From positions 1-30,741 of the forward strand of contig DAIEMM010000130.1 in NCBI GenBank assembly GCA_027349605.1: a DNA stretch of 30,741 bases. Reading direction: 5' to 3'. Shown here piece by piece: positions 15,285 to 30,741 of the stretch (positions are counted from its first letter, which is position 1; each line of letters begins with the position of its first letter). This stretch comes from Anaeromyxobacteraceae bacterium (GTDB lineage: Bacteria > Myxococcota > Myxococcia > Myxococcales > Anaeromyxobacteraceae). The notes below the pieces were generated by a model, which had not been told where the DNA came from, searched no databases, and saw only the letters and a program-made list of their open reading frames with translations. A program made the translations under genes and the position numbers.

Positions 15285-15301
15285 CGTGCGAGGACGCGCC
15301 A

Positions 15302-15586
15302 ATGACTCTGCGAATCGTCGGAGCGGTACTGATTGGAGCCCTGTCGACACCGGGGCTGGCATGGGGAGACGGGGGAGGAGGGGGAGGGGCTCGTGAATTC
15401 GCGGGCCCGCTGAGGCCAACGGAGGTGGTCGGGGTCCCGCTCTCCAGGAGCGAAGCGAGCCCCACCTGCAGATGCATGATGGCGGAACCGCACGACGCCA
15501 CCCCGGACAAGTCGTCCGCCAGCTCAAAGCCCCCTGAAGGGGGTGAACGGGCTACGGGCCGGGGCCACGTCGAGGAGCATCACTGA
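15302..15586 (+). CDS. Small secreted CxC protein P2 (94 aa), uncharacterised
   Basis: Signal MTLRIVGAVLIGALSTPGLA resembles P1; poly-Gly; TCRCMM; C-terminal HVEEHH. Confidence 0.65.
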   Translation: MTLRIVGAVLIGALSTPGLAWGDGGGGGGAREFAGPLRPTEVVGVPLSRSEASPTCRCMMAEPHDATPDKSSASSKPPEGGERATGRGHVEEHH

Positions 15587-15664
15587 ACCAGATCTTGATC
15601 GTATTCGCCGGGGTACGACGCATCGCGCGCCGGTGAAGCGTCACCCTGGCTCGAGAGGTACCCG

Positions 15665-16630
15665 ATGCCTGTCCTTCAAGACGTGACGAATGCGTCTCGC
15701 AAGGGCTACTGGATCGTAGCGAGTTTCGCGGTGATCGGGTTCGCCCACCTCGCGGTGGGGAACGCTACCCACGCACAGCACCTCGTTCATCTGGTGTTTG
15801 GTGCGGCGTACCTGCTGCCCATCGTTGCCGCTGCCGCCTGGCTCGGTGCCCGTCCAGCTCTCCTGCTCAGCGCGGCTTCGGCGGCGACGTACCTGCTGCA
15901 CGCCAGGACCATCAGCGGTAACGGACCCATGGGGATCGCCAACGCGCTCGTGCTGTCCGCCGTGTTCCTGTTCGTCGGAGTGGTGTCGGCCACGCTCGTC
16001 GCGACGGCCGACCGCGAGCGGCGAGTTCGGCTCGACGGGGAAAGGACCGCGCAGCGCGATGCCATGATGCAGGCGCTCGCCAGCCTTTCGGGTGCTCTCC
16101 GGCAGCGGGACGATGGGACAGCCGCCCACTGCGAGCGTGTGGCGTGCATCGCGGCACGCGTTGGCGCGACCCTCGGGCTGTCAGAGGAGCGGCTCCAGGT
16201 GCTCCACCTCGCGGCGCTCGTCCATGACGTTGGGAAGACCGGCGTCCGTGACGACGTACTCCTGAAGCCGGGAGAGCTGACTGCGGAGGAGCGTGGCCGG
16301 ATCGAGCGGCACACGGTCCTTGCAGCCGAAATCCTGCGGCCCATAAGGGGGGCCGAGGAGATTGCCGAGATCGTCTTGTGTCACCACGAGTGTCCCGACG
16401 GGAGCGGATACCCTAGACGGTTACACGGCAACCAGATCCCGGCCCTTGCCGGAGTACTGCGCGTCGCTGACGTGTTCGCGGCCTTGGTCGAACCCCGTGC
16501 GTACAAGGTTCCGATGCGCCCGGAGGAGGCTGTCTCCCGGATGAGCTCGCTCCAAGGAAGGCTCGATCCGGACGGGTTCGCGGCACTGCAGCGCCTCGTG
16601 GCCGCCGATACTCCGGGCGATCTGGCATGA
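15665..16630 (+). CDS. Membrane-bound HD-GYP phosphodiesterase (probable c-di-GMP PDE)
   Basis: About 4 N-terminal TMs; HCERV, LVHDVGK, HHECPDGSGYP, ADVFAAL..PRAYK; RBS GAGG. Confidence 0.85.
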   Translation: MPVLQDVTNASRKGYWIVASFAVIGFAHLAVGNATHAQHLVHLVFGAAYLLPIVAAAAWLGARPALLLSAASAATYLLHARTISGNGPMGIANALVLSAVFLFVGVVSATLVATADRERRVRLDGERTAQRDAMMQALASLSGALRQRDDGTAAHCERVACIAARVGATLGLSEERLQVLHLAALVHDVGKTGVRDDVLLKPGELTAEERGRIERHTVLAAEILRPIRGAEEIAEIVLCHHECPDGSGYPRRLHGNQIPALAGVLRVADVFAALVEPRAYKVPMRPEEAVSRMSSLQGRLDPDGFAALQRLVAADTPGDLA

Positions 16631-16748
16631 CACCCCGGGAACGAGACGTCGGCGACGGTCGACGGGTCGCTGGAAACGAGGTGAAGACCATCGGGGACGC
16701 AGCGTGGCTGCGCCGCCCCTTGCTCGACTAGCCATTCCCCACGGGGGG

Positions 16749-17114
16749 TCAGCTCGTCTGTGGCGAAGCGGTGCTCCCGGAATCTGGCGCGTTGGGCCTC
16801 GCATCGGCTCCGGCCACGCACTCGCATTTCGCGGTCGAATGACCAGCAGCAGTGCCCGTCACGCTGGGATGCGACACGCGGGGCGTAATGATGTCGGCGA
16901 AAAAGGTGACCGGCGGGACGACGGTGATGAACAGGACCGCCATCGTGCCCAGCAAGGCGCCCGGCCCGGTCCAGGAGGATGCCGCGATGGTGGAACCAGT
17001 GTTCTGTGCGGGAGATGCCACGGTTCCATCGGTGCTCGTCGCCGCCTTCGGAAGCGGAGTGCCTGTGTAGGATGCGGCGTTGGCGACAGCTCGCATGTAT
17101 CTGGCTACGTTCAT
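16749..17114 (-). CDS. Hypothetical 121-aa single-TM protein with KCEC motif
   Basis: Start overlaps the DoxX stop (ATGA), suggesting translational coupling; hydrophobic segment followed by CxC; otherwise low complexity. Confidence 0.4.
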   Translation of the reverse strand: MNVARYMRAVANAASYTGTPLPKAATSTDGTVASPAQNTGSTIAASSWTGPGALLGTMAVLFITVVPPVTFFADIITPRVSHPSVTGTAAGHSTAKCECVAGADARPNAPDSGSTASPQTS

Positions 17115-17662
17115 TGGATGGTCGCTCCTGGGTGGTTGGACAGAGTTCGTCTGACTTGCGATGGGTGCTTCCTACGGCGAGTGGTGGAAACGGCGGGTGG
17201 ATCAGGCTCCTCGTGGCGCGCGGAAGACGGGAGGACGTGAGCGGCTGCGACAAGCCCACATGCGAGCCCGACCAGAATGTCGGCCGGGGAACCTTGGCCG
17301 AACGGGCTCCCCTGGAGAACCAACGGGGAGACCTGCGTCAGGGCCAGTATGGCGGCCGCCAGAGGCGTGAGCCGGGGCCAGAAGCCGCTCGCGGCCGGGA
17401 TGACGATCAAGAGAGCCCCCGCCACCTCCATCCAACCGGCCCAGGCGAGCGCTCCGTCGGCCACTCCCACGCCCAATCGGAATACCTGTCGAAGGATCTC
17501 GGGCTTGATGCCCGCCTTGAGGAGACCGGGCACGAGCAGGACGATGGCGAGTTCCCACTGCAAGAGCCAGAGAATGCTCGTTCTCCCCTCCTGCCCGTTC
17601 CACGCGCGCTCGGCGGGGGCCCTCGGGGCGGCAAGATCGGACGCGTCCGCGAAGGGGATCAT
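17111..17662 (-). CDS. DoxX-like membrane protein
   Basis: ILWLLQWELAIVLLVPGLLK...GWMEVAGALLIVIPAASGFWPRLTPLAAAILAL matches the DoxX-like pattern; start uncertain (ATG 17662 or ACG 17581). Confidence 0.7.
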   Translation of the reverse strand: MIPFADASDLAAPRAPAERAWNGQEGRTSILWLLQWELAIVLLVPGLLKAGIKPEILRQVFRLGVGVADGALAWAGWMEVAGALLIVIPAASGFWPRLTPLAAAILALTQVSPLVLQGSPFGQGSPADILVGLACGLVAAAHVLPSSARHEEPDPPAVSTTRRRKHPSQVRRTLSNHPGATIQ

Positions 17663-17675
17663 TGCCCCGATGCGG

Positions 17676-17691
17676 TGCAATGGGCTTGCCA
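17676..17691 (-). promoter_or_regulatory. Sigma54 promoter for doxX
   Basis: TGGCAAGCCCATTGCA, near consensus; only GTCAC half-sites upstream (17788, 17808). Confidence 0.6.
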
Positions 17692-17933
17692 ATCCATCGG
17701 GGAATCAACTTGAGCCTCGATGGGCGCCTTTCACGCGGTCGTCTTCACGACGCCGCGCCAGGACCCCGCACCTTCGGCCAGACCTCCGTCACTCGGGAAG
17801 CCACCCCGTCACTGGACGAGTCTCGTTCCTTGGGCATGCGGAGAGGCTCCGCGCGGGCAGTCCTGAGCGCCCAGCACCTTCCAACCTGCCAAGTTCCACG
17901 ACTTCCACACGGCTCAGCGACTCGCGACACAGA

Positions 17934-17949
17934 CGGCACAGCGGATGCA
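17934..17949 (+). promoter_or_regulatory. Sigma54 promoter for the receiver gene at 18028
   Basis: CGGCACAGCGGATGCA, divergent from the doxX promoter. Confidence 0.5.
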
Positions 17950-18027
17950 AATTGGCCACATGAACACGATGCGCCAGGCGGTACCGCGCTTTCGCGCGGG
18001 TCGCGGCCTGCGCTCCGAGGCGATGCA

Positions 18028-18498
18028 ATGACACGCATCCGTGTACTGGTGGCGGACGACGATCTGGACCAGAGGGCTCTCTGGACTGGAATCCTGCAGG
18101 GGGAGTTCGAGGCGGACGTCGTGACGGTCAACGACGGTGTGACCGCGATCAAATGCCTCTGCGAAGAGGGCTTCGATCTCGTCGTCGTCAATCACGACGT
18201 CCCGCTCGTTTCGGGCATGGACATACTCAGATACGTCCGAGCGAGATGGCCCTGGCTCCCGTTCCTCCTTCCGGCGAGAAGGGCCTCCCCGGTCGTTCGC
18301 ACCGAGGCGCGCCGCCTGGGCGCTCACGTGATCGCCAAGCCATTTGGAGCCGGTTACGCCGCCCGGTTGCTCGCCGTCGCAGCCTCGCGTCGGTCCCGCG
18401 GCAGGCCGCCATCGCGGGCCGATACCCGCTTCCGCAGGCACGTCGCGCCTGCCGAGGGATCGCAGAGGTGTGCACCGACGCGGCATGACAGCGCATGA
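18028..18498 (+). CDS. Stand-alone receiver domain lacking the phospho-acceptor Asp (156 aa)
   Basis: VLVADDD, DGVTAI, FDLVVVNHDVP (Asp to Asn), AKPF; Arg-rich tail. Confidence 0.75.
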   Translation: MTRIRVLVADDDLDQRALWTGILQGEFEADVVTVNDGVTAIKCLCEEGFDLVVVNHDVPLVSGMDILRYVRARWPWLPFLLPARRASPVVRTEARRLGAHVIAKPFGAGYAARLLAVAASRRSRGRPPSRADTRFRRHVAPAEGSQRCAPTRHDSA

Positions 18499-18525
18499 CG
18501 CTGCTCCGCCACGTCCCTGCCTGGA

Positions 18526-20289
18526 CTACGCCGCGCACTCGCCTGTCTTGACGTCCACCAGGAACTCCTCCGCACTCCCCGGCTCGACGAAGTCCTCGGC
18601 CGTCGCATCCTCCAGGCGGAGATCCTCGAACGAGGCCACGGCCTCCCTTGCCCGATCGGTTGCGCGCGCGAAGAAGGCGCCCGCGGGCTCCCCGGCGCGC
18701 CGTTCCGCGAGGTAGAGCGAGACGAGCCTCGTGACGGCTTCCGGAATGCGCCGCGATGGAACCTTCCCTACGGGCACGCCAAACCGTGCCTCGCTGCCAT
18801 CCGGATGTCCCCCGACCAGGATCGAATATTGCGGGACGGCTCGACCTCCGAGCTTCCTGGCACTTCCCTGCAGCCCGATGGCGGCCAGGTGGTGCTGGCT
18901 GCACCCGTTCGGGCACCCAGACACGTGCACCGGGAGCTCGGCCTGCAGGGCGAGCGGGCCGAGAGCCGTACGCACTTCGCCCTCGACGAGCCGGGCGACG
19001 GTCCGCGTCTGGGTGACCGCCAGCCGACAGACCTCCGCGCCAGGGCAGGCCACGACGTCGGCCGCACTTCCGGCTCCGTCCCGGCCCAACCCGACGGAGG
19101 TGAGCGCGTTGAATAGGGTACGCAGGTTGTCGTCCGCAACCCACCGGACGAGGATGTGGCCGCCACTCGTGAAGCGGACGCCACCCCCTCCGAAGGCTTC
19201 GGACAGGTCGGCCAGGGCCTCCAGCTGCGCGGCCGTCACATCGCCGAGCGGAAGGGACACCACGACGGAGGAGTACCCGGCCTGCCGTTGCGGTTGGACG
19301 TTCGTGGCCTGGAAGCCCTCCCAGCCCGGGTCGGGGCGAGACGGAACGGGAAGCGCCGGCAGTGGCTCCCGAGGTGCCCAGGTCTCGGGCGGCTGCTCGG
19401 GGGAGAAGGGTAGGGAGGGGACCCCATCTTCGCGAATCGACTCGAGCTCCTCGAGCACGAGCGCCCGGAACCGATCGAACCCCAGGGCACGCACCAGGAA
19501 CTTGAGACGGTTGCGTTGTCGGTTGACCCGGTCGCCGTGAGCGTGGAAGACGCGGACGACCGCCTCACCCAAGGCCAGGATCTCGCCTGCTGGCAGGAAA
19601 TCCAGGAGAGGGGATGCGGACGTGCAAAGGGTCGATGTCCCACCGGCGACGGAGACGGCGAAGCCTCGGACGACCTTCCCGTCGACGGACCGGACACGGG
19701 CCCGAAAGCCGAGATCCTGGATCGCGATCGGAACGTGATCCTCAGAGCACCCCTCGAAGGCGACCTTGAACTTGCGCGGGAGCGCGTCCCCGAGCGGATG
19801 GCGCAGGAAGTGGCGCGTGAATGCCTCGGCGTACGCAGTGGTGTCGAAGACCTCGTCCGGGGAGATCCCGCCGAACGGGCACGAAACCACGTTCCGGACC
19901 GTGTTCCCTCCTGCGCCGGAGGTGGTGATTCCCGCCTCGGCAAGTCGCCGAACGGCGGGCCCCACGTCGCCGGGCCTCACGAAGTGAAGCTGGAAGTTCT
20001 GGCGGGTCGTGAGGTGACCGAAGCCCCGGGAGTAGCGGGTCGCGGTGTCGGCGAGAGCGCGCAGCTGGACGGCAGTCACGGAACCCTGTGGCAGCTTGAT
20101 CCGCAACATGTGGATGCCGTCCTGCCGTTGACCGTAGACGCCTCGGGCCACGCGGTAGGCGCGCCAGGTGTCGGCGTCGATCTCCCCGCGCTCGAAGCGG
20201 CCCAGGTTCTCGACCAGTGCGGCAATCTCCGCCTCGTCTGCGAAGGTCGCCGCGGGTGGGGTAAGTGTTGATGGGTGAGTGGACGTCAT
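18526..20289 (-). CDS. Ferredoxin-type siroheme sulfite/nitrite reductase (sulfite likely from context)
   Basis: GVYGQRQ, HLTTRQNFQLH, NTVRNVVSCP, LPRKFK, CPGAEVC and SGCPNGCSQH (4Fe-4S/siroheme Cys); ends GECAA. Confidence 0.9.
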   Translation of the reverse strand: MTSTHPSTLTPPAATFADEAEIAALVENLGRFERGEIDADTWRAYRVARGVYGQRQDGIHMLRIKLPQGSVTAVQLRALADTATRYSRGFGHLTTRQNFQLHFVRPGDVGPAVRRLAEAGITTSGAGGNTVRNVVSCPFGGISPDEVFDTTAYAEAFTRHFLRHPLGDALPRKFKVAFEGCSEDHVPIAIQDLGFRARVRSVDGKVVRGFAVSVAGGTSTLCTSASPLLDFLPAGEILALGEAVVRVFHAHGDRVNRQRNRLKFLVRALGFDRFRALVLEELESIREDGVPSLPFSPEQPPETWAPREPLPALPVPSRPDPGWEGFQATNVQPQRQAGYSSVVVSLPLGDVTAAQLEALADLSEAFGGGGVRFTSGGHILVRWVADDNLRTLFNALTSVGLGRDGAGSAADVVACPGAEVCRLAVTQTRTVARLVEGEVRTALGPLALQAELPVHVSGCPNGCSQHHLAAIGLQGSARKLGGRAVPQYSILVGGHPDGSEARFGVPVGKVPSRRIPEAVTRLVSLYLAERRAGEPAGAFFARATDRAREAVASFEDLRLEDATAEDFVEPGSAEEFLVDVKTGECAA

Positions 20290-20299
20290 GGAGTTCCTT

Positions 20300-21661
20300 T
20301 CAGGCCCTCTGCGCGTCCGCGCGAGGGGTCGCTTCCACGGGCTGGGTGGCGTGGCCCGACACGAGGGACAGGCCGGCCACGCTTCCTACGACGATGGTTC
20401 CTGGCAAGTGAGCCGCCTCCTCGGGAAGGACGGTCGAGCCGAGCTCGGCGAGCGTGCCTCGCCAGCTTGCGGAACCGCTGCTCGACGCGCCCAGCAGGAC
20501 GGCCGCAGGCGTGTCGTCCCGCCAACCACGTTCGCGAAGCCGAGCGCTGATCCCCGCCCTCTCTCCGATTCCCATCAGGATCACGAGGGTCAGCGAGCCA
20601 GGGGCGACTCCATCCAGGATCGGGCCGTACGAGCGCTCGGAGTGTCCGGAGACGACGGCGAAGCCCGCGGCGAGGCCGCGGTGGGTGACCGGAATGCCGG
20701 CGAGCGCAGGGGCGGCGATGGACGAAGAGACTCCCGGGACGACCTCGAACGGAACGCCAGCCGCCGCGAGCGCCTGGGCCTCCTCGCCACCCCGGCAGAA
20801 GACGAAGGGATCCCCGCACTTGAGCCGGACCACGCGCTGTCCACGTCGGGCCGCCTTCACGAGCAGACGCTCGATGGACCGCTGGGACACGCTCGGCGTT
20901 CCTGCGCGCTTCCCGACGTAGAAGCAGTGGGCCCGGGGCGCGAGCTTCAGCACCTCGCCATCGGTCAGGGCGTCGTAGAGAACCAGGTCGGCCTCGGCGA
21001 GCCGCTCGGCCGCGCGACGCGTGAGAAGCCCCGCGTCCCCCGGCCCGGCTCCGACGAGCGAGACGAATCCGGGGGGCAGACGGGTGGACGTCTCCGGGCC
21101 GCCACCGTAAAGCGCGTTCAGCTTCTGGAGGAGCATGGGCCGCCTGGTCGCAAGCGGCACGCCGGCACGCTTCCACCCCGAGCGCTCACCCTCCGCCAGG
21201 TCCATCCAGGCCCCTAGATCCCGCGGCAGGACCGCGTCGATCGCCTCCCGGAGGAGGCCGGCAAGCGCGGGGGCGCGCCCGGCTGTCGAGATGGCGACCG
21301 TGGCTCCCCCGCGTCGGACGACGCCTGCGGTGTAGGCGGTGGCGCAGTCCGGGTCGTCGACGGCGTTGACGAGGATGCGGCGCTCCTCCGCGGCATCGGC
21401 CACGGCGCGGTTCACGGCCGCGGTCGCCGCGGCGACGGCGAACCACGTCCCATCGAGATCCCGGGGCTCGAACGGGCGCCGCAGGACGACCTCCGCCAGT
21501 GCCGCCGCGCCGTCGCTGACCTCCGGGGCGACGACGGTGAGACGCGCGCCGGCCGCGGCGAGCTGCTTCGCCCGGGCGGTCGCCATGGCGCCACCTCCCA
21601 CGATGACGACCCGGCGGCCCGCGAGCTTGGCGAACAGGGGGAACAGCTCCGGTGTGCTCAC
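20300..21661 (-). CDS. cysG: Siroheme synthase (dehydrogenase/ferrochelatase plus uroporphyrinogen-III C-methyltransferase)
   Basis: FPLFAKLAGRRVVIVGGG, NAVDDP, AISTAGRAP; VSLVGAGPGDAGLLT, RLKCGDPFVFCRGGEE, VVPGVSS. Confidence 0.92.
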   Translation of the reverse strand: MSTPELFPLFAKLAGRRVVIVGGGAMATARAKQLAAAGARLTVVAPEVSDGAAALAEVVLRRPFEPRDLDGTWFAVAAATAAVNRAVADAAEERRILVNAVDDPDCATAYTAGVVRRGGATVAISTAGRAPALAGLLREAIDAVLPRDLGAWMDLAEGERSGWKRAGVPLATRRPMLLQKLNALYGGGPETSTRLPPGFVSLVGAGPGDAGLLTRRAAERLAEADLVLYDALTDGEVLKLAPRAHCFYVGKRAGTPSVSQRSIERLLVKAARRGQRVVRLKCGDPFVFCRGGEEAQALAAAGVPFEVVPGVSSSIAAPALAGIPVTHRGLAAGFAVVSGHSERSYGPILDGVAPGSLTLVILMGIGERAGISARLRERGWRDDTPAAVLLGASSSGSASWRGTLAELGSTVLPEEAAHLPGTIVVGSVAGLSLVSGHATQPVEATPRADAQRA

Positions 21662-21900
21662 ATGATTCCCCAGAGGCGAGAGTACTCGAGCACGATCTGG
21701 AACTCCGGATCCCGGAAGCCGTGCCCTCGGAGATACGCCTTCGCCGCATGGGCCTCGACCGTCTCGGAGGAGAAGGAGACGTGCTGGCGCTTGCGATGCA
21801 CCCGGAAGCCGATCGCCTGGAGCGCGCCGGCCAGCTCGTTCACCCGGGGCTCCGCCAGCTCTCCGGCAGGGCTCACCGTCGTGACGTGGGAGACCATCAC
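21658..21900 (-). CDS. Small hypothetical protein (79-80 aa), translationally coupled
   Basis: Start overlaps the YeiH stop (GTGATG) and its stop overlaps the cysG start (ATGA). Confidence 0.7.
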   Translation of the reverse strand: MMVSHVTTVSPAGELAEPRVNELAGALQAIGFRVHRKRQHVSFSSETVEAHAAKAYLRGHGFRDPEFQIVLEYSRLWGIM

Positions 21901-23237
21901 TTCACCCCGTTCCAGTAGTCGGCGAAGACGTGAGCGGAGAGCCAGTAACCGAGCGGCACGTTCACGATCACGCCCACGGCGAAGGCCGCGAACGGCCTCC
22001 AGCCGAAGCGCGTCAGCTCCCGGAACCGCGTGGTGAACCCGATGCTGAGGAAGGTCCAGGTGAAGGCCCAGCCTCGAAGGGTCTTCAAGGGGGCGATGGC
22101 CTCCTTGGAGAAGCGGGTGCCACTCTTAGCGTCGATGGAGGCGAGGACGAAGGTCACCACGAGGGATGCAGCCAGGAAGCCGAGGATGAACTTGGGGAAC
22201 CGGCGCCAGATCTCGCCCACGTCGACCCGCTCGGCCTCGCCCGACTTCTTCCTGTCCCAGATGGTGACGGAGAGAAGCGCGACGACCAGCGCCCAGACGC
22301 CCACGAACATGTCACGCCCCACGACCTTCATGAGCGTGAAGGTCTTGATCGCTCGTTCGTCCCCGACGGCGGAGGCCGCCGCGAAGCCGGCCGCGTCCGC
22401 GAACTCGGACGTTCCGATCCAGGCGCCGGCCACGCCGGGCTCGAGGCCGAGGTTCCTTGCCCAGAGCGGGAGCACGAAGATCATCGCGACCGCCCAGAGG
22501 ATCACCATGGAGATCGCCACCGAAACGTGGCTCTTCTCGGCCCGGCAGGCGCCGCCGATGGCGATGGCCGCCGAAACCCCGCAGATCGACCCGCCCGCTC
22601 CGAGCGTGGCGCCGAAGCGGGGGTCGAGACCGAACAGGCGGGTCGCTGCGAAGTAGATGGTGGCGAAGGTGGTGACCGCGACGATGGTCGCCTGTGCGAT
22701 GGCGAGCGGGCCTGCCTGCAGGATGATCGTGAAGGGCAGGGTCGCTCCCAGGAGGATGATGCCGACCTTCACGTAGAACTCCGTGCGCAGCGCGGACTGG
22801 AACCACCCAGGCAGGGTCACCGAGTTGCCGAGCAGCATCCCGACGGCAAGCGCCAGGAGGGGAGTCTCGAGCTGCCACTGCTTGAGCGTCTGGTTGGAGC
22901 CGAGCACGGTCACGACGATCGAGAAGACGAAGAGGAGCGCGAACCCGGCCGCATACTTCCCCACGTCCCAGCCGATGACGGCGGATGCCGCGGAGAACGC
23001 GAGGAGGAAGACCGCGAAGAGCGCGATCGGCCCGGCTGGCTGGGCCGCGAAGGTGGCGGCGACCTTGGCCAGGCTTCCGGACCAGGTCGGGATGGTGAGC
23101 GCCGTCGCCCCCACGAAGGGCGATGCTCCGAGGAAGAAACCCGTCGTCACGGCGAGCACGAGACCGAGGGCGATGAAGATGGCCCAGGTGTCCTCGCGAC
23201 GGTGCCAGGGGAGTGCGATGGGGGCGATGTTGGACAT
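21897..23237 (-). CDS. YeiH/PSE family putative sulfate exporter (446 aa)
   Basis: ATG 23237 after GAGGAAG; EDTWAI, LRTEFYVKVGIILLGA, GGSICGVSAAIA, AWIGTSEFADAAG, FPKFILGF; multiple TMs. Confidence 0.88.
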   Translation of the reverse strand: MSNIAPIALPWHRREDTWAIFIALGLVLAVTTGFFLGASPFVGATALTIPTWSGSLAKVAATFAAQPAGPIALFAVFLLAFSAASAVIGWDVGKYAAGFALLFVFSIVVTVLGSNQTLKQWQLETPLLALAVGMLLGNSVTLPGWFQSALRTEFYVKVGIILLGATLPFTIILQAGPLAIAQATIVAVTTFATIYFAATRLFGLDPRFGATLGAGGSICGVSAAIAIGGACRAEKSHVSVAISMVILWAVAMIFVLPLWARNLGLEPGVAGAWIGTSEFADAAGFAAASAVGDERAIKTFTLMKVVGRDMFVGVWALVVALLSVTIWDRKKSGEAERVDVGEIWRRFPKFILGFLAASLVVTFVLASIDAKSGTRFSKEAIAPLKTLRGWAFTWTFLSIGFTTRFRELTRFGWRPFAAFAVGVIVNVPLGYWLSAHVFADYWNGVK

Positions 23238-23251
23238 GGCGGCTTCCTCGA

Positions 23252-23782
23252 TCAGGCGGCGTCGCGGGCGTCCGACGAACGAACGTGCTCGAGCGATCCC
23301 GACACCGCGAGCGGTGTCCTCAGGATGTCGAGGACGGGGCAGTGGGCCTCGACCACCTCGGAAAGGTTCCGGATCGTCTCCGGCGACTCGGGCGACACGA
23401 CACGGGTCGCGAAGGTGACGCGGTCGAATCCGGCCGGGTACTTGGAGTCCCCGAGGAAACCGCGGAGGTCGAGATACCCCTTCGCCTCCACCTCGACCCG
23501 GTCGATGCGCAGGCCCAGGGCGTTGGCGTAGGCCCGGTACACGATCGCCTGGCAGCTGCCGAGCGCGGCGAGGACGGCCTCCACCGGGTTCGGCCCCGTG
23601 TCCGTCCCACCCAGATCCGCGGGCTCGTCCAGGCGTACGCCGAATCCACGAATGCTCGAGTCCGTGGACAGCGAGTCCGCGTCCGAAACGGTGGTTGCGC
23701 GGAACACGGCCCTGGCCGCGGCGGGGTTCTCGGTGACGGCCTGCTTCAGGGCGACGACTGCCTTCTTCACTTGCTCGCTCAC
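23252..23782 (-). CDS. OsmC/Ohr family protein (176 aa)
   Basis: GTG after GAGG; DEPADLGGTDTGPNPVE, LGSCQAI, AHCPVLD (Cys pair). Confidence 0.85.
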   Translation of the reverse strand: MSEQVKKAVVALKQAVTENPAAARAVFRATTVSDADSLSTDSSIRGFGVRLDEPADLGGTDTGPNPVEAVLAALGSCQAIVYRAYANALGLRIDRVEVEAKGYLDLRGFLGDSKYPAGFDRVTFATRVVSPESPETIRNLSEVVEAHCPVLDILRTPLAVSGSLEHVRSSDARDAA

Positions 23783-23881
23783 TTGGACCTCTGGACAGGG
23801 CTCGAGTACGGAGGCGCACGGCAGGAGCCCTTGGCCCATGCGCTCTACGTCGTGGATGGATGGGGGAGATTCGCCGGCTGC

Positions 23882-23986
23882 TCAGCCGCGCATTCGCGCG
23901 GGCGGCGCCGGCCTGCGACAGATGCACATCACCCGCGGCACGAGGCGGGGGCCGATGGGCTGCAGGTCATGGCCGAAGTGCATCAT
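23882..23986 (-). CDS. Putative leaderless Cys-containing leader peptide (34 aa)
   Basis: MMHFGHDLQPIGPRLVPRVMCICRRPAPPARMRG; ATG lies 7 nt after the -10 TAGGAT; 99 nt upstream of osmC. Too short for the ORF track. Confidence 0.5.
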   Translation of the reverse strand: MMHFGHDLQPIGPRLVPRVMCICRRPAPPARMRG

Positions 23987-23993
23987 CGGGCGC

Positions 23994-24023
23994 ATCCTAC
24001 TTAACGGATTACCATCCTGTCAA
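23994..24023 (-). promoter_or_regulatory. Sigma70-type promoter of the osmC-yeiH-cysG-sir operon with overlapping operator
   Basis: TTGACA-N18-TAGGAT; contains ATCCGTTAAGTAGGAT (23994-24009), shared with the ssu promoter. Confidence 0.7.
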
Positions 24024-24063
24024 GCGGACAACGGAGGAACGTCCGATCTAGCGGATGACGCGA

Positions 24064-25467
24064 TCAGTCGTCACGCTGCCGGTAGTCGTCCGAGCGCAGA
24101 CCGTGGGTCTTCAGGAGCCGGTGCAAGCTTTCGCGCTTGATGCCTGCCCGTTCCGCCGCCTTGGTCACGTTGCCGTGGAACTCGGTGAGGAGTGCCACCA
24201 GGTACTCGCGCGAGACGCGATCGTGCGCCTGCTCTACGGCCTCCCGGTAGGGCATGGACGCGAGTACCGCTCCGGGTGGGATGAGCATCGCTGTCGCAGC
24301 GGAGAGCTCTGGCGGGAGGTCGCGCCCCTGGATCGTCGTTCCGCTGGCGACGGCGACGGCGCGCTCCACGGCGTTTTCCAGCTCCCTCACGTTCCCGGGC
24401 CAGGGGTGCGACGTGAGCAGGCGGAGCGCCTCCGGGTCGAAGCCGGAGATCTCCCGCCGCATCGCGCTCGCATGTTTCTCCAGGAAATGCGTTGCGAGGA
24501 GGGGCACGTCCTCGATGCGATCGCGAAGCGGCGGCAAGTGAACCGGGAAGACGTGGAGACGGTAGTAGAGGTCCTCCCGGAAACGACCGGCCTGGGACTC
24601 GGCGCGCAGGTCCCGGTGGGTGGCCGCGATCACGCGGACGTCCACCTTCACGGGCGTGTTGTCTCCCACCCTTCGGATCTCCTTCTCCTGCAACGCGCGG
24701 TTGAGCTTCACCTGGGTCGCGAGAGGTAGCTCGCCGATCTCGTCGAGGAAGATGGTTCCACCCTGGGCCTCCTCGAAGATGCCCGCCTTGGCCCCGGCTG
24801 CACCCGTGAACGCGCCCCGTGCATGGCCGAAGAGCTCGCTCTCCACGAGATCGGGTGGCAAGGCGCCGCAGTTCACGGGCACGAACCGGCGCTCCTTCCG
24901 CGACGAGTGGTAGTGGATGGCGCGGGCCGCGAGCTCCTTGCCGGTGCCGGTCTCGCCGCCGAGGAGCACCGTGATGTCGAGCGCGGAAGCCTTCTCGAGG
25001 AGGCGGTACACCTCGCGCATCGGAGCGCTCTTCCCGATGAGGTTGTGGAAGGAGTACACGCCCTCGAGCTCCCGCCGCAGGCTCATCGCCTCGTCTCGGA
25101 GGCGCTTGCGTTCGGCGGCACGCGCCACCGTCAGGCCCGCGGCGTCGGGGTCGAACGGCTTCTCGAGGTAGTCGTAGGCTCCCATCTTCATTGCCTTCAC
25201 GGCGTCGCCGACCGTCCCATAGCCGGTCATCATCACCACCTCGGTGGAGGGGGAGCGTGCCTTCACGGCCTGGAGGACCTCGAACCCCCCGGCGCCCGGC
25301 ATGCGGATGTCGGTCACGACCACGTCGAACTCCTCGGTGCCGACGAGCGAGAGGGCGTGCGCTCCATCTCCAGCGGTCGACAGGCGGTAGCCGTGGGACA
25401 GGATCTTCCCGAACAGCTTCAGCATGTTTTCCTTGTCGTCGACGACGAGAACTCTCACGTCGGTCAT
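24064..25467 (-). CDS. Sigma54-dependent response regulator (NtrC family; CorR-like)
   Basis: Receiver VLVVDDK...VVTDIRMPG...YLEKPF; Walker A GETGTGKE; GAFTGA; FLDEIGE; C-terminal HTH GNVTKAAERAGIKRESL. Confidence 0.92.
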   Translation of the reverse strand: MTDVRVLVVDDKENMLKLFGKILSHGYRLSTAGDGAHALSLVGTEEFDVVVTDIRMPGAGGFEVLQAVKARSPSTEVVMMTGYGTVGDAVKAMKMGAYDYLEKPFDPDAAGLTVARAAERKRLRDEAMSLRRELEGVYSFHNLIGKSAPMREVYRLLEKASALDITVLLGGETGTGKELAARAIHYHSSRKERRFVPVNCGALPPDLVESELFGHARGAFTGAAGAKAGIFEEAQGGTIFLDEIGELPLATQVKLNRALQEKEIRRVGDNTPVKVDVRVIAATHRDLRAESQAGRFREDLYYRLHVFPVHLPPLRDRIEDVPLLATHFLEKHASAMRREISGFDPEALRLLTSHPWPGNVRELENAVERAVAVASGTTIQGRDLPPELSAATAMLIPPGAVLASMPYREAVEQAHDRVSREYLVALLTEFHGNVTKAAERAGIKRESLHRLLKTHGLRSDDYRQRDD

Positions 25468-26930
25468 CCTGAAACCTCCTGGGTGTGCGGAATGTGAGGA
25501 AGGCTCAGGGTGAAGATGGCTCCCCTGCCGGGCGCCGGGGAGAGCGCGATGTCCCCCCCGTGAGCACGCGCGATGGCGCGAGAAACCGCCAGGCCAAGGC
25601 CGGTACCCTTGTCCTTCGTGGTGAAGAACGGCTCGAAGAGCCGCGAGGCCGCGTGCTCCGCGAGGCCGGGTCCGTCGTCTTCCACGTCGACCCGGACCCA
25701 CTGCTCGTCGCCGCGCACCCGGATGGTCACCCGTCCGTTCGCCCCGGCGGCTTCGGCGGCGTTCCGAATGAGGTTGGTGAGCACCTGCCGGATCTTCAGG
25801 GGATGGCACTGCACGGTGGCCTCGCCGTCGATCGCGACCTGGACTCCCTCGAGGGCCTCGGCCTCCCGGAGGCGGCCGACGACTTCATCGGCGACCTCGC
25901 GAAGGTCGAGCACCTCGCGAGCCTGCGACAGCGGACGAGACAGGTCGAGAAGTCCCTCGACGATGTCGCGAGCACGGATGGCCTCCTCCTCGATCACGCG
26001 GACGTCGTCCGCCAGAGGCCCGCGAGCGCTCTTCCCGAGCAGTCGCGCATAGCCGAGGATGACGGCCAGAGGGTTGTTGATCTCGTGGGCGACGCCCGCA
26101 GCCAGGCGCCCGATGCCAGCCAGCTTCTCGCTCTGGACCAGGCGAGCCTGGTTTTCCTTGAGGGCCGCCGTCATGGAGTTGAACTGGCGGGCGAGAGCGC
26201 CGAACTCGTCATCGGTGCCGACGTCGATCCGGGTATCCAGGTCGCCGGACGCGAGCCTCGTGGCGCCCGCGCGCAGGCGACCCAGGGGGCCAGCAATCGA
26301 GCGGCCGACGCTCACCGCGATGGCGACGGCGAGAATTGGAGCGCCGATGAGGAGGACCATCACCCAGCGGTGGATGCTCTCCTCCGCCGCGAGGACCTCG
26401 GCCCGGGAAGCCCGGATGCTCGCCTCCGACTTCTCGGTGATGAGATTGGCTCGATCCTGGATGAGGGAGACGAGTTCCTGGGCCCGATCGTGCTCGGACT
26501 GGATGACGGTGGCGTCACGGCGAAGGACGGCGGGAACGATGGAATCGCGAAACAGCGAATCCAGGCTTCTGCCGGCCGTCTCGATGTCACCCATCCACCG
26601 GGATTCCTCTTCCCCTCGATAGTGCGCACGGAGCTCGCGCGTGAGTTCGTGCACGCGCTCGCGGGCTCCCACGTAATGACCCATGTGCGATTCGTTGCCG
26701 ATGATGATGGTGTGGGCCTGGTGGGCGTACTGGTCCCGCACCGCGCTGGCGAGCTCGAGCGCGAGCCGCATCCCTTCCTCGTCGTCCTTCATCCGTTCCA
26801 CCGCCAGGTGCGTGCTGTGCAAGCCGGCCAGCGCAACCCAGGATGTCACCCCCACGACGAGGGCGAGAGCGCCCAGGCCAAGGGCGAGCCGTCGCGCCGT
26901 TCCCGACCAGCCAGAGAGGAAGGTGTGCAT
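25464..26930 (-). CDS. HAMP sensor histidine kinase with His-rich periplasmic domain (CorS-like)
   Basis: Two TMs; periplasmic QYAHQAHTIIIGNESHMGHY; HAMP; H-box GVAHEINNPL; N-box NLIRNA; DDGPG, FFTTK, GTGLGL. Confidence 0.9.
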   Translation of the reverse strand: MHTFLSGWSGTARRLALGLGALALVVGVTSWVALAGLHSTHLAVERMKDDEEGMRLALELASAVRDQYAHQAHTIIIGNESHMGHYVGARERVHELTRELRAHYRGEEESRWMGDIETAGRSLDSLFRDSIVPAVLRRDATVIQSEHDRAQELVSLIQDRANLITEKSEASIRASRAEVLAAEESIHRWVMVLLIGAPILAVAIAVSVGRSIAGPLGRLRAGATRLASGDLDTRIDVGTDDEFGALARQFNSMTAALKENQARLVQSEKLAGIGRLAAGVAHEINNPLAVILGYARLLGKSARGPLADDVRVIEEEAIRARDIVEGLLDLSRPLSQAREVLDLREVADEVVGRLREAEALEGVQVAIDGEATVQCHPLKIRQVLTNLIRNAAEAAGANGRVTIRVRGDEQWVRVDVEDDGPGLAEHAASRLFEPFFTTKDKGTGLGLAVSRAIARAHGGDIALSPAPGRGAIFTLSLPHIPHTQEVSG

Positions 26931-26946
26931 TCAGTCATTCCGTTAC

Positions 26947-26962
26947 AGCAAGAGTTACGCCT
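26947..26962 (-). promoter_or_regulatory. Sigma54 promoter for the kinase/regulator operon (autoregulation)
   Basis: AGGCGTAACTCTTGCT; 75 bp from the UAS F centre. Confidence 0.55.
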
Positions 26963-27023
26963 GCGCTCGATGGACCGAAAATCAGCTACTTGGCGACCCG
27001 GATGGGACAGCTAGCCGCTCCGG

Positions 27024-27048
27024 GGGCGTGACCGTGATGGTGACAGTG
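27024..27048. promoter_or_regulatory. Candidate activator binding site (UAS F)
   Basis: GGGCGTGAC-CGTGATG-GTGACAGTG (7/9 per arm) between the regulator operon and the efflux operon. Confidence 0.6.
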
Positions 27049-27151
27049 TAATGCAGCAGATCGAAGGCGGAGTGCCGTGTCTGAAGGAGTCGAACGCTCG
27101 ATCTCCTGAAATGCCAGAGGCTTGGGTTGATGAGCCCCGCCGCCCGTGATT

Positions 27152-27167
27152 CGGCACGCCGAGTGCT
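27152..27167 (+). promoter_or_regulatory. Sigma54 promoter of the cupredoxin-cus operon
   Basis: CGGCACGCCGAGTGCT; 117 bp from the UAS F centre. Confidence 0.7.
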
Positions 27168-27201
27168 AAGGACCACTCCGAACCCTTTCCCGGAGAAGCA
27201 A

Positions 27202-27618
27202 ATGGTCATCAAATCCATCGTCGTGACTTCCCTGACCGTCGCCGCTCTCGTCGCCATCCCCGCTCCGGCCTCTGCCATGGACGACCACCAGCACGGGTCG
27301 CACGGGCCGGCGCCAGTGGCGGCTCCCTCCACCGCCAGCCCTGCTCCGAAGGATGCCCAGGAGGTTGCGATCACCGTCACGAGCAAGGGCTTCGAGCCCT
27401 CGACGGTGACGGTGAAGAGCGGCAAGCCGGTGAAGCTCGTCGTGACGCGCAAGACTGAGCGGACCTGCGCGACCGAGATCGTGATGAAGGACTTCGGGGT
27501 GAACCAGACCCTTCCGCTGGAAAAGCCCGTGAACATCGTGGTCAACCCGAAGGGGCCCGGTCAGTATCGCTTCGCGTGCAGCATGAACATGATCGCCGGG
27601 ACCCTGAACGTCCAGTAG
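27202..27618 (+). CDS. Secreted cupredoxin-domain protein (CupA-like, 138 aa)
   Basis: ATG after GGAGAAG; signal peptide then MDDHQHGSHG; TCATEI and FACSMNMIAG ligand loops. Confidence 0.88.
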   Translation: MVIKSIVVTSLTVAALVAIPAPASAMDDHQHGSHGPAPVAAPSTASPAPKDAQEVAITVTSKGFEPSTVTVKSGKPVKLVVTRKTERTCATEIVMKDFGVNQTLPLEKPVNIVVNPKGPGQYRFACSMNMIAGTLNVQ

Positions 27619-27628
27619 GAGGAACGCC

Positions 27629-29011
27629 GTGCTCTCGATCGTGGCCTTGCTCGTCGTCGCCGCAGCCGATGTTGGGACTGCACCCATTCCGCTCGACGCG
27701 GATCCCGCGGTCCGGGGGCTCGTGGAGCAGGCGCTGAAGAGCAGCCCGGAGATCGGGAGGGCCGAGGCGACCGCGAAAGCGGAGGGCGAGCGGGCCCCTC
27801 AGGTGGGCTCCCTTCCAGACCCGACGCTCACGCTGGGCATCCAGAACGACGGCTTCAATGGGATCCAGATCGGGACCATGGAGACGTCCTACTGGCAGGT
27901 CATGCTGACGCAGCCGATTCCCTGGCCCGGAAAGCTCTCGGCGAGGGAAGCGGCGGCACGCTCCCAGGCGAGCGTCGCCGGTGGAGAGACGGCGCGGCTC
28001 CGGCTCACGACCACGGCGGACGTGGAGCGGGCCTACGTGGACCTGCTCCTCGTCCGCGGCCAGATCGCGCTGCTCGGCAAGCTGGAGGTGCTCTGGCGGG
28101 AGGCCGAGGTGATAGCCAGGGCGCGCTACGAGGTCGGTCAAGTGTCGCAGTCGGACCTGCTTCGCGCGCAGCTCGAGCGAACCCGGCTCCAGCAGCGCCG
28201 GGTGGCGCTGGAGGGCGAGGAGCGGACCCGGCTGCAGGCGCTCAACCGGCTCCGGGTCCATCCGCTCGACGAACCGGTCCCCACGCCACGTCCACTCTCC
28301 ACGTTCACCGACCCGGTCCTTCGCGCGGTTGACGAGGCAGTAGCCGATGCCGAGAGGCGGAGTCCCGACCTCGCCATCGCCGCGCTCTCGGTGCAGTCCG
28401 CCGACCGTCGCCTCGATTCCGCGAAGAAGGACTGGTTCCCCGACTTCGCCGTCACCGCGGGAGTCATGCCGCGGGGGCAGATCGAGCCCATGTGGACCGT
28501 TCAGCTCGGGATCACCCTGCCTGTCTGGGGTGCGACCAAGCAGTCGAAGGGCGTGGAGGAGAGCCAGTCACGCCGTGAAGCCGACCTCCGCAGCGAGGAG
28601 TCGGTGCGACTTCAAGTAAGGCTGCGCGCGCAGGAGCGGAGGACGCTTCTCGCCTCGGCGCTGCAGACCCTCGACATCTATCGCGGCGGAATCCTCGTGC
28701 AGTCGGACGCAACCATCCGCTCCACGATGTCCCAGTACCAGGTGGGCAAGGTCACGTTCCCCTCGGTGCTCGAGGTCCTGCGCGGTCTCGTCGGCGACGA
28801 GGGCGGCTACCTGGACGCCTTGGCTGCGGCCCAGAAGCTGGCCATCGCCGACCGTGAAGTGAGCCTTGCTCCTCCCGATGGAATAGGCAGCGGCTCCGGC
28901 GGATCGATGCCGGGCGCGGCCTCCGTGTCCACCGCGGGGCGCCCCGCCGGAGGTTCGCCCCAGCCCGCCGCCGTTCCCGCCGCGACCGGCAGCACGTCTT
29001 CCGGAATGTAG
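27629..29011 (+). CDS. TolC-family outer membrane efflux protein (CusC-like)
   Basis: GTG after AGGAGG; SLPDPTLTLG, QPIPWPGK, YEVGQVSQSDLLRAQ, KDWFPDF, YQVGKVTF. Confidence 0.88.
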   Translation: MLSIVALLVVAAADVGTAPIPLDADPAVRGLVEQALKSSPEIGRAEATAKAEGERAPQVGSLPDPTLTLGIQNDGFNGIQIGTMETSYWQVMLTQPIPWPGKLSAREAAARSQASVAGGETARLRLTTTADVERAYVDLLLVRGQIALLGKLEVLWREAEVIARARYEVGQVSQSDLLRAQLERTRLQQRRVALEGEERTRLQALNRLRVHPLDEPVPTPRPLSTFTDPVLRAVDEAVADAERRSPDLAIAALSVQSADRRLDSAKKDWFPDFAVTAGVMPRGQIEPMWTVQLGITLPVWGATKQSKGVEESQSRREADLRSEESVRLQVRLRAQERRTLLASALQTLDIYRGGILVQSDATIRSTMSQYQVGKVTFPSVLEVLRGLVGDEGGYLDALAAAQKLAIADREVSLAPPDGIGSGSGGSMPGAASVSTAGRPAGGSPQPAAVPAATGSTSSGM

Positions 29012-29030
29012 TCCCACTGGAGAAGCGACG

Positions 29031-30446
29031 ATGAGCGACATGAAGATCCCTGCCCCTTCGCGTCGGTTCGGCGCCGGGGCGATGGCCCTGGTCCTGATGC
29101 TTGGCCTTGGCCTGGGGGGCGGAGCGGCGTACCTGGTCTTCCGTGGCACGCCGGGTCACGATCACGCAGCCCCTTCCGCCGAGGCGAAGACCCGCTACAC
29201 CTGCCCGATGCACCCGACCATCGTGTCGGACCACCCCGGCGACTGCCCGATCTGCGGCATGGCGCTCGTAAAGGTGGGGGCAGCCGGCGGAGCAGCCGGT
29301 GGCGAGAGGAAGATCGCCTTCTATCGGTCGCCCATGGACGCGAAGCAGACCTCGCCGGTCCCGAGGAAGGACGAGATGGGCATGGACTACCTGCCCGTCT
29401 ACGAGGATGAGGTGGCGGGCGGCGCGGCGCCGGTGGAGGGGCTCGCGAACGTGCAGATCGATCCGCAACGCCAGCAGCTCATCGGCCTGCGAACCGTCGA
29501 GGCCAGCGTCGGCCCCGTGGGCGCGAGCTGGCGCACGGTCGGCAAGGTGGCGGTCGACGAGACCCAGGTGCACCACGTGAACATCAAGGTGGGTGGCTTC
29601 GTGGACACCGTCTACGTGGACTACGTCGGCAAGCCGGTGAAGCGCGGCGAGCGGCTCTTCTCGATCTACAGCCCGGACCTGCTCTCCGTGCAGCAGGAAT
29701 ACCTCCTTGCGCTCCGGACCCGGAAGGCGCTCTCCGAGGGCGGAGTGGCCACCGGCGCCGGCAACGACCTGGTCGAGTCTGCTCGCGAGCGCCTCCGGCT
29801 CTGGGACATCCCGGAGAGCGAGGTGAAGCGGCTCGAGGAGACCGGCAAGCCGACGAAGAACCTCACCCTCTACTCGCCCATGACCGGGGTGGTGACGAAG
29901 AAGGACATCGTCATGGGGCACCGGCTCAACGAGGGGGACATGCCCTACGAGATCACCGACCTGTCCCGGGTCTGGGTTCTCGCCGACGCCTACGAGACCG
30001 ACCTCGGCCGGATCCGGACGGGGATGACCGCGACGCTCTCCCTCGAGGCATTTCCGAACAAGACGTTCAAGGGGAAGGTCATCTTCATCGACCCCATCCT
30101 CGACGCCAAGACCCGTACCGCCAAGGTCCGCCTCGAGTTCGCGAACCCCAAGGGCGAGCTCAAGCCGGAGATGTTCGGCGAGGTGACGATGCAGGCCGAG
30201 AAGCGGGAGGGCCTCCGCATCCCCGCCGATGCGGTCATCGACTCGGGGACGAGGAAGGTGGTCTTCGTCGCGCTTGACGAGGGCAAGTTCCAGCCACGCG
30301 AGATCGAGGTCGGGTCGGTGAGCGGAGATCAGGTGGAGGTCGTCTCCGGCCTGAAGGCCGGTGACAAGGTCGTCACCCGCGCCAACTTCCTCATCGACTC
30401 CGAGTCGCAGCTGCGCGCCTCACTGGCCGCCATGGGAGGGAAGTAG
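29031..30446 (+). CDS. cusB: Heavy-metal RND periplasmic adaptor with heavy-metal-binding domains
   Basis: YTCPMHP...CPICGMAL; YRSPM...KDEMGMDYLPVY; GFVDTV...GKPVKRGE..IYSPDL; LKPEMF; ANFLIDSES. Confidence 0.9.
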   Translation: MSDMKIPAPSRRFGAGAMALVLMLGLGLGGGAAYLVFRGTPGHDHAAPSAEAKTRYTCPMHPTIVSDHPGDCPICGMALVKVGAAGGAAGGERKIAFYRSPMDAKQTSPVPRKDEMGMDYLPVYEDEVAGGAAPVEGLANVQIDPQRQQLIGLRTVEASVGPVGASWRTVGKVAVDETQVHHVNIKVGGFVDTVYVDYVGKPVKRGERLFSIYSPDLLSVQQEYLLALRTRKALSEGGVATGAGNDLVESARERLRLWDIPESEVKRLEETGKPTKNLTLYSPMTGVVTKKDIVMGHRLNEGDMPYEITDLSRVWVLADAYETDLGRIRTGMTATLSLEAFPNKTFKGKVIFIDPILDAKTRTAKVRLEFANPKGELKPEMFGEVTMQAEKREGLRIPADAVIDSGTRKVVFVALDEGKFQPREIEVGSVSGDQVEVVSGLKAGDKVVTRANFLIDSESQLRASLAAMGGK

Positions 30447-30448
30447 CG

Positions 30449-30741
30449 ATGATCCAGAGGATCATCCGCTTCTCGGCGGAGAACCGCTTCCTGGTCATCG
30501 CCGGGACAGTCGTGCTGCTCGCGCTCAGCGTCTACGCGATGCGGAACATCCCGCTCGACGCGCTGCCCGACCTGTCCGACACGCAGGTCATCGTCTACTC
30601 CCGGTGGGATCGAAGCCCCGACATCATCGAGGACCAGGTCACCTATCCCATCACGACGGCGCTGCTCGGCGCGCCCAAGGTGAAGGCGATCCGGGGCTTC
30701 TCCGACTTCGGCTTCAGCTACGTCTACGTGATCTTCGAGGA
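30449..30741 (+). CDS. cusA: CusA/CzcA heavy-metal RND permease, N-terminal part (runs off the window)
   Basis: Translated by hand: MIQRIIRFSAENRFLV...IPLDALPDLSDTQVIVYSRWDRSPDIIEDQVTYPITTALLGAPKVKAIRGFSDFGFSYVYVIFE. Confidence 0.9.
   Translation, partial: MIQRIIRFSAENRFLVIAGTVVLLALSVYAMRNIPLDALPDLSDTQVIVYSRWDRSPDIIEDQVTYPITTALLGAPKVKAIRGFSDFGFSYVYVIFE

Follow-up and report, generated by a model that had tools for sequence, protein, structure and literature searches.

To our knowledge, experimental proof of ribosome-mediated cysteine sensing is confined to mycobacteria, and for Proteobacteria-like lineages transcription factors are believed to control sulfur assimilation. Leader open reading frames that work as Rho-dependent attenuators include tnaC-tnaA in Escherichia coli and mgtL-mgtA in Salmonella, of which mgtL senses proline through its codons, and many conditional terminators associated with upstream open reading frames (uORFs) in high-GC bacteria have been proposed to respond to the general progress of ribosomes. 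In mycobacteria, polycysteine leaderless small open reading frames (sORFs; Ms5788A, 'Cys ribulon') regulate cysteine operons; the class is defined by at least two consecutive Cys codons, and its proposed mechanism is the pairing of the Cys tract with the Shine-Dalgarno (SD) sequence of the next gene (Canestrari et al. 2020, bioRxiv 10.1101/834739). In this study, we analysed a window of 30,741 nucleotides (nt), the stretch from position 1 to 30,741 of contig DAIEMM010000130.1, which belongs to a 74%-complete metagenome-assembled genome (MAG) of an Anaeromyxobacteraceae bacterium (Myxococcota; assembly GCA_027349605.1). In this window a 34-codon uORF precedes a sulfite-reductase operon, osmC-yeiH-orf78-cysG-sir, and the original prediction, made from the letters of the sequence, had proposed it as a cysteine attenuator. 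We put the probability that the element is a ribosome-mediated, cysteine-sensing regulatory uORF at roughly 55%, and it is with that degree of confidence that we regard the region as the 5' regulatory leader of the operon; cysteine supply would then probably tune the sulfite-reductase operon via the uORF. All features of the element lie on the minus strand, and positions follow the numbering of the whole stretch.

The leader ORF (34 codons plus TGA) occupies 23882..23986, with the ATG at 23986..23984 and the TGA at 23884..23882, and contains the motif V-M-C-I-C-R-R-P. The putative regulatory Cys codons, TGC-ATC-TGT, lie at 23918..23926 (TGC 23926..23924; TGT 23920..23918) and correspond to positions -14 and -12 from the C-terminus. 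We assembled 25 distinct uORF homologues, 20 from Anaeromyxobacteraceae genome loci and five from metagenome contigs. Sixteen were retrieved with a 21-nt pattern of the uORF end that left out the Cys codons and was run over 363 genomes of the order, all 16 belonging to the window's own family, and four more by searching for the yeiH orthologue alone with nothing imposed on the leader, so neither Cys codons nor their spacing were required in the search for the 20 genome-derived loci. For the five metagenome variants, both TGT and spacing were part of the search pattern, and the scan also returned many chance hits.

Across this set, position -12 is Cys in 25/25 sequences and always encoded by TGT, and position -14 is Cys in 22/25 (TGC in 20, TGT in 2), with the codon between them free to encode eight different residues. 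At least two Cys are found within these three codons in 23 of the 25 homologues and a single Cys in the other two; the pattern is C-x-C in 19/25 (C-I-C in the window) and adjacent Cys, as CC or CCC, in 4/25. The remaining N-terminal residues contain 5 Cys in 425 (1.2%). Among the genes of the window, Cys is encoded by TGC 25 times and by TGT 5 times, and an invariant TGT amid such TGC-rich usage suggests that either the nucleotides themselves are constrained or the codon read by wobble is selected for. The distance from TGT to TGA is exactly 36 nt in all 25 sequences, including the 20 genome loci that were found without imposing it, and the Cys codons end 7 nt before a GC stem, a spacing that is likewise fixed in all homologues. 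The neighbouring Arg at -11 is kept in 23/25 through five synonymous codons including AGA, and this synonymous variation is, as judged from the codons, a coding signature outside the hairpin. Of the checks suggested together with the original prediction, the comparative one thereby speaks for it: the start beside the -10 box, the uORF and its Cys codons are all preserved ahead of orthologous [osmC]-[yeiH]-cysG-sir genes in 25 distinct sequences.

The uORF is preceded by a sigma-70-type promoter, TTGACA-18-TAGGAT, at 23994..24023 (-35 box 24023..24018; -10 box 23999..23994). In a promoter scan this was the sole sigma-70-like site in 23000..25000, where shuffled sequences gave an expectation of 0.1, and also the sole one in 11000..30741; its hexamers and their flanks are conserved across genera. 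Both the promoter and the conservation of the element clearly exceed what chance would give. The ATG of the window lies 7 nt past the -10 box, and an ATG or GTG stands 7-10 nt past it in 25/25 homologues despite variable flanking bases, leaving no room for a Shine-Dalgarno sequence. Four orthologous loci that lack the uORF have no start codon at the corresponding place, and cysD in the same genomes starts about 17 nt past its -10 box. The mRNA is thus predicted to be leaderless, with its 5' end at or within 3 nt of the AUG. For one myxobacterial gene, a leaderless transcript has been proposed (PMC12754779). Metatranscriptome contigs of relatives with 90-95% identity offer weak support for the predicted start: one, a single insert flanked by adapters on either side, spans 23690..23972 and another 23765..23978. 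Both run from the uORF interior through the hairpin into osmC, and their ends miss the predicted +1 by 14 and 8 nt. The third of these contigs, 23873..24039, includes the promoter and could stem from carried-over DNA or be a unit into which the conserved block was assembled.

As judged from its pattern of conservation, the uORF is clearly under selection for translation. The frame is open from start to TGA in 25/25 homologues, and the other frames carry stops in 11 of the 25 loci; ORF lengths of 24, 30, 32, 33, 34, 35 or 36 codons occur, the frame surviving the insertions and deletions (indels) between them. Alignment gaps of 1-2 nt begin immediately past the TGA, which marks the end of the coding constraint. 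As peptides, the N-terminal halves cannot be aligned, and hence it is not the peptide itself that matters as a product. The readings on the minus strand from which the original prediction set out, namely the promoter, an ATG 7 nt further on, a 34-codon ORF with M-C-I-C and osmC at 99 nt, all hold, and what that prediction missed at the promoter are operator-like repeats shared with cysD, described below. Two other readings of the ORF were tried and rejected: selenocysteine incorporation at the UGA through a SECIS element, given that the structure lies upstream of and around the UGA rather than after it and that the frame is broken by 1-2 nt indels past the stop, and programmed frameshifting, there being no slippery heptamer before the hairpin.

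The TGA is enclosed, on the 3' side of the stem, by a predicted GC stem-loop at 23873..23912 (-31.2 kcal/mol), the inner part of which, CCGCGC-GAAT-GCGCGG, lies at 23901..23886; this and all further structural statements are predictions. The inner hairpin had been recognised from the start, and the larger stem-loop that encloses the stop had been overlooked. The same two-tier stem folds in every homologue, at -31 to -40 kcal/mol, and 90.6% of the alignment cells are paired, as against 27-55% when the partners are slid. Codons in the stem are invariant at their wobble positions (CCG in 25/25, GCG, GCG, CGC, GGC), and the rare CGA is kept in 23/25, so that much of the apparent peptide conservation (..P-A-x-x-A-R-M-R-G) is conservation of nucleotides. 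This nucleotide-level share had gone unnoticed in the original prediction. Changes within the stem include several G-U pairs across homologues, one compensatory pair overall (a C-G to G-C swap in G121, by which the last residue changes from Gly to Arg) and a synonymous change in G077 that breaks one inner pair; the GAAT loop is replaced in G132 and G133 and reads GACC in G131b and GAAC in G131a. In a close metagenome variant, P0006, the TGA is changed to TGG and the peptide is extended by six codons, which reach into the 3' arm and the C-rich tract.

Directly past the hairpin lies a G-free C-rich tract of 20 nt (23852..23871), a candidate Rho loading (rut) site. In 20 loci the C-rich region starts about 12 nt past the stop and contains 50% C and 25% G over 40 nt, and it is predicted to be mostly unpaired in all modelled states. 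A second GC hairpin, GGGCTC...GAGCCC, is found at 23798..23830, just upstream of the osmC ribosome-binding site; a strong hairpin occupies this position in every homologue, with a sequence that differs by lineage. The 3' half of the first hairpin can pair with the region of the downstream hairpin at -27 to -38 kcal/mol.

The leader is tied to sulfur assimilation by its genomic position. By tblastn and Pfam searches, cysG-sir lies within about 7 kb downstream in 18 of the 20 genome loci, but not in G096 or at one of the two G131 copies. Most often the genes are arranged as uORF-[osmC]-yeiH-cysG-sir, and in G077 (L192), G103 (L195) and G023 (L065) yeiH is only a remnant (MS..LP.RRR.DT..) and the uORF directly precedes cysG-sir. 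In five loci (G023, G076, G077, G108 and G121) cysK-like PALP genes follow. A search for related DNA also showed that in other genera of the family the conserved part is the leader, not osmC. With regulatory codons, a fixed distance to the stem and the pathway downstream, a leader ORF that senses Cys-tRNA is the best reading of these data.

In the mechanism that we propose, a sigma-70 promoter, probably under the control of a sulfur-regulon transcription factor, would start the mRNA at the AUG or no more than 3 nt from it, and the first ribosome would load on the 5' end without a Shine-Dalgarno sequence. A leader peptide of 34 codons would be translated whose sequence is irrelevant except for the two Cys codons, UGC-N3-UGU, fixed 7 nt before the GC stem-loop that holds the UGA stop. 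When Cys-tRNA(Cys) is short, the ribosome would pause on the invariant UGU, a codon read by wobble, and the hairpin foot would lie at the mRNA entrance of the ribosome; when cysteine is plentiful, the ribosome would unwind the hairpin, reach the stop and leave. The two states would fold the leader differently and thereby set the extent to which transcription or translation continues into the sulfite-reduction genes, most likely through premature termination by Rho at the C-rich tract that follows the hairpin. What the sequences show is the anatomy of the leader, its conservation, the coding signatures and the association with cysG-sir. The leaderless start, the stalling at the Cys codons and the Rho output are steps that we infer, and the direction, on when cysteine is low, would follow from the pathway only.

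Rho-dependent premature termination is our leading guess for the output step because rho is present, U-tract terminators are depleted, the C-rich tract is predicted to be single-stranded and a precedent linked to uORFs exists. A rho gene scoring above the family cut-off was found in G020 and G074, U-tract terminators are rarer than expected in the window (3 vs 7.1), and Term-seq in Mycobacterium tuberculosis has tied Rho-dependent premature or conditional termination to translated uORFs (bioRxiv 10.1101/2022.06.01.494293). Anaeromyxobacter genomes contain a canonical rho, scoring about 695 bits, and in addition a shorter Rho-like gene that scores about 475 bits, short of the family cut-off; the hits of the Rho search are at C1:816346-817599 and C1:1418148-1419248 in G020, likewise in G074, and at C374:1372-2457 in G000.

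Several results weigh against the cysteine-sensing mechanism or against parts of it. The Rho model alone does not explain why stalling upstream should differ from normal termination at the stop. With the UGU in the A site, the leading edge of the ribosome would, by standard footprint sizes, cover only the first 4-5 nt of the stem, so the notion that a stalled ribosome melts a terminator does not fit; as the foot of the hairpin would stay unmelted during the stall, the discriminating event may lie in whether the ribosome moves on and opens the hairpin. When 20 leaders were folded by partition function, the unpaired probability of the downstream SD was 0.48 in the free state, 0.46 with a ribosome stalled at the Cys codons and 0.47 with one at the stop, and sequestration of the SD by the Cys tract in the mycobacterial manner is accordingly unsupported by folding, the accessibility being flat across states. 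The alternative pairing between the two hairpin regions is weakly better than in shuffled sequences (mean z = -0.77; 21/25 negative), no conserved antiterminator was found in the leaders of the homologues, and a scan of 23000..25000 returned no intrinsic-terminator-like site, in agreement with the original prediction, with no U run past either hairpin in any homologue. It is conservation by itself that argues for a role as RNA, because covariation in the hairpin is at chance level with none significant in the 25-sequence comparison, and the hairpin is no stabler than its dinucleotide shuffles (z = -1.28; 24/200 fold as well). There are just two Cys codons, which are non-adjacent, and 2/25 homologues have one. 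In addition, the homologue counts overstate independence, because the sequences are related to each other.

Like the mycobacterial sORFs, the element has a short, here predicted leaderless, ORF as first cistron with sulfur or cysteine genes downstream, Cys codons as the presumed sensor of Cys-tRNA and an mRNA structure of importance beside them. It differs from them in that its two Cys codons are mostly non-adjacent (C-x-C) instead of forming a poly-Cys run, in that they are not predicted to pair with the downstream SD, in that the stop is placed inside a conserved hairpin followed by a C-rich tract, and in that there is one locus per genome, in the phylum Myxococcota, instead of a regulon of many loci. 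A multi-locus arrangement after the 'Cys ribulon' was considered and rejected, since cysK and cysD loci in G020, G074, G021 and G000 are without such a uORF; the hairpin pattern is confined to a single locus per genome, or its duplicate in G131. With the classical attenuators trpL, hisL, leuL, thrL and pheL of E. coli and Salmonella it shares codons of the end product just before a stable stem-loop, a second hairpin further on and a logic that depends on ribosome position, but it has neither a U-tract terminator nor a demonstrable terminator/antiterminator pair, its leader is SD-less and predicted to be leaderless, and its stop falls inside the first hairpin. In tnaC and mgtL, as is proposed here, the position of the ribosome on the leader ORF is thought to decide whether Rho gains access to a C-rich site just downstream; the requirement of TnaC for conserved residues near the stop is not seen in our homologues, and folding revealed no alternative stem of the mgtL type that would hide the C-rich tract, which is predicted to be unpaired in all states. 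The element thus falls outside the strict definitions of both the mycobacterial class (consecutive Cys codons, SD pairing) and the classical one (intrinsic terminator). With the same slight preference that we give to cysteine sensing as such, we consider it a leader-peptide sensor of an amino acid, a known kind of switch in a new phylum and in an unusual form that does without a terminator.

If this is correct, a leader-peptide layer would be added to sulfur regulation in Myxococcota, based on leaderless mRNA and no textbook terminator, with a separate transcription-factor operator on the same promoter. The case also bears on how attenuation works in high-GC bacteria with few intrinsic terminators and on why a rare synonymous codon can be invariant. 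Its interest lies mainly in the terminator-less architecture, in the invariant rare codon and in its testability: relatives with and without the uORF module provide a natural comparison, and Anaeromyxobacter dehalogenans, of which strains 2CP-C (locus L026) and 2CP-1 (locus L025) carry the element, is culturable, which makes the idea directly testable in this species.

A more specific design, which we hold to be rather unlikely, is a terminator-less attenuator in which one invariant, wobble-decoded UGU, placed exactly half a ribosome footprint before the stop-enclosing hairpin, would be read out by whether the ribosome unwinds or waits, through Rho or another effector, or else in which the nascent C-x-C-R would sense a sulfur compound. 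Were it true, unwind-or-wait readout or exit-tunnel sensing would be a mechanism not described for any amino-acid operon.

It is less probable still that the element is a general translation-coupled leader, that is, a Rho- or structure-dependent attenuator reporting the overall progress of ribosomes, be it a stall of any kind, stress or the uncoupling of translation from transcription, to which the Cys codons add little. Such a leader would agree with the clear selection of the uORF for translation, with the combination of C-rich tract, rho and missing intrinsic terminators, with the link between Rho termination and uORFs in M. tuberculosis (bioRxiv 10.1101/2022.06.01.494293) and with the presence of only two Cys codons, but it leaves unexplained the invariance of Cys -12 and the near-invariance of Cys -14 where the neighbouring codon and the N-terminal half drift, and why the element is tied to cysG-sir (18/20) and occurs nowhere else in these genomes.

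Somewhat more doubtful is an arrest peptide, in which C-x-C-R...P-A, lying in the exit-tunnel constriction 9-14 residues from the peptidyl-transferase centre when the ribosome is near or at the UGA, could respond to a sulfur metabolite by keeping the ribosome on the hairpin and stop codon. The beginning of the Rho site would thereby be covered, much as happens with TnaC and tryptophan. The conservation of the C-terminal 14 residues and not of the N-terminus could be read in this way, as could the location of the Cys residues 12-14 residues from the peptidyl-transferase centre with the ribosome at the stop, the retention of Arg -11 through synonymous codons, which suggests selection at the level of the amino acid, and a stop that is almost always UGA with the C-rich tract about 12 nt further on. 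However, residues close to the stop change: Gly at -1 becomes Arg in G121, ARMRG becomes AHARG in G132 and G133, and M at -3 becomes P or T. Further from the stop, R, G, E, W, Q and P all occur at position -10. The changes at -1, -3 and -4 occur with RNA pairing kept (G121, G131b, G132, G133), the wobble-invariant stem codons and the rare CGA point to a constraint on nucleotides, and the natural TGG variant is six codons longer.

The least probable of these readings is a nucleic-acid element with an incidental ORF, namely a protein-binding RNA hairpin or a DNA operator or roadblock whose open frame is a by-product of high GC. In its favour, all codon positions are conserved in the inverted repeats (GCCGGCG...CGCCGGC, with CCGCGC-GAAT-GCGCGG between them), covariation is not significant and the locus carries operator repeats at the level of DNA. 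It does not, however, account for a start codon at the predicted +1 in 25/25 loci and its absence from the four uORF-less ones, a frame kept through at least seven ORF lengths, the third-position and synonymous patterns at codons -14 and -11, the conserved TG of both Cys codons beside a free codon and frame-breaking indels that begin only past the stop, and the G-U pairs together with the one compensatory pair fit RNA better than DNA symmetry.

The operator-like repeats comprise a dyad, TCCG-N6-CGGA, at 24042..24055, upstream of the -35 box and kept in all uORF loci, and TCCGT/TCCGC half-sites at 24035..24031, 24028..24024 and 24008..24004. The dyad and the promoter type also occur at cysD (G020, G021 and G074) and at yeiH loci that lack the uORF; loci showing this combination include L188 (upstream of cysD in G020), L189, L187, L073 and L082. 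Its position is upstream of the -35 box where the uORF is present and downstream of the -10 box at cysD and the uORF-less yeiH loci. From its distribution, the dyad is probably an operator for a sulfur-regulon transcription factor common to the yeiH-sir and cysD operons, and the uORF module would be an add-on to an operator-bearing promoter in most but not all lineages. No regulator gene adjoins the locus, the neighbours being cytochromes, a PF03601 paralogue or a Cys/Met pyridoxal phosphate (PLP) enzyme, the last as the divergent neighbour in Anaeromyxobacter oryzae.

With respect to distribution, a strict 39-nt pattern run over one genome per species, 185,579 species in total, matched only Anaeromyxobacter-type records, that is, Anaeromyxobacter terrae, A. 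soli, A. oryzae and A. sp. PSR-1 together with MAGs labelled Anaeromyxobacteraceae, 'Myxococcales' and 'delta proteobacterium'. The host family being Anaeromyxobacteraceae (Myxococcota), the earlier claim of an element outside Actinobacteria is upheld, and the sigma-54 activator next to the leader likewise suits a host that is not actinobacterial. No yeiH orthologue was found in 61 genomes of Myxococcaceae. Within the family, the yeiH-orthologue search yielded four orthologous loci that keep the promoter and lead by a short 5' untranslated region straight into yeiH (L073 in G094, L082 in G105, L076 in G110 and L087 in G119), the whole module of uORF, hairpin and C-tract being missing, which suggests that the module was gained or lost as a unit; two more loci from this search have neither promoter nor uORF. 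G131 carries two copies of the module, at C23:127549 (-) and C8:227522 (+) (L067, L202), of which copy b precedes a full osmC-yeiH-cysG-sir operon and copy a, with a single Cys codon, precedes yeiH only. A search of Rfam gave nothing relevant at E <= 10 in 23000..24600, and no description of the element was found in the literature searched; exact look-up of the peptide returned it in a few metagenomes, annotated only as 'hypothetical protein'.

Upstream of the leader, a histidine kinase (25464..26930) and a sigma-54 response regulator (24064..25809), both on the minus strand and assigned by Pfam, form a block (24064..26930) that stops 41 nt short of the -35 box. Their position next to the leader probably has no function for it, since a similar kinase is found downstream of sir in G021. 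A sigma-54 promoter in the gap behind the activator gene was considered and rejected, no GG-N10-GC match being seen by eye; the kinase and activator belong to a separate copper system.

Downstream and on the same strand, the osmC-like gene (PF02566) occupies 23252..23792 including its SD AGAGG (23792..23788), and its GTG start at 23782, taken from the alignment of homologues, is 99 nt past the uORF stop. The operon ends with cysG, encoding siroheme synthase (20300..21661; PF00590 and PF13241), and sir, encoding an assimilatory sulfite/nitrite reductase of the NIR_SIR type (18526..20289; PF01077 and PF03460). Between yeiH and cysG lies a conserved 78-codon ORF (21661..21894) whose start overlaps the yeiH stop and whose stop overlaps the cysG start; no Pfam family matched it, and it is kept in G020, G021, G073 and G125. 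The yeiH-like transporter gene itself (21897..23237; PF03601) shows 81% identity to its G020 orthologue, and the yeiH-type protein is extended at its N-terminus by about 100 residues, in which a LPWHRREDTWAI motif is conserved; this extension lies outside the Pfam model.

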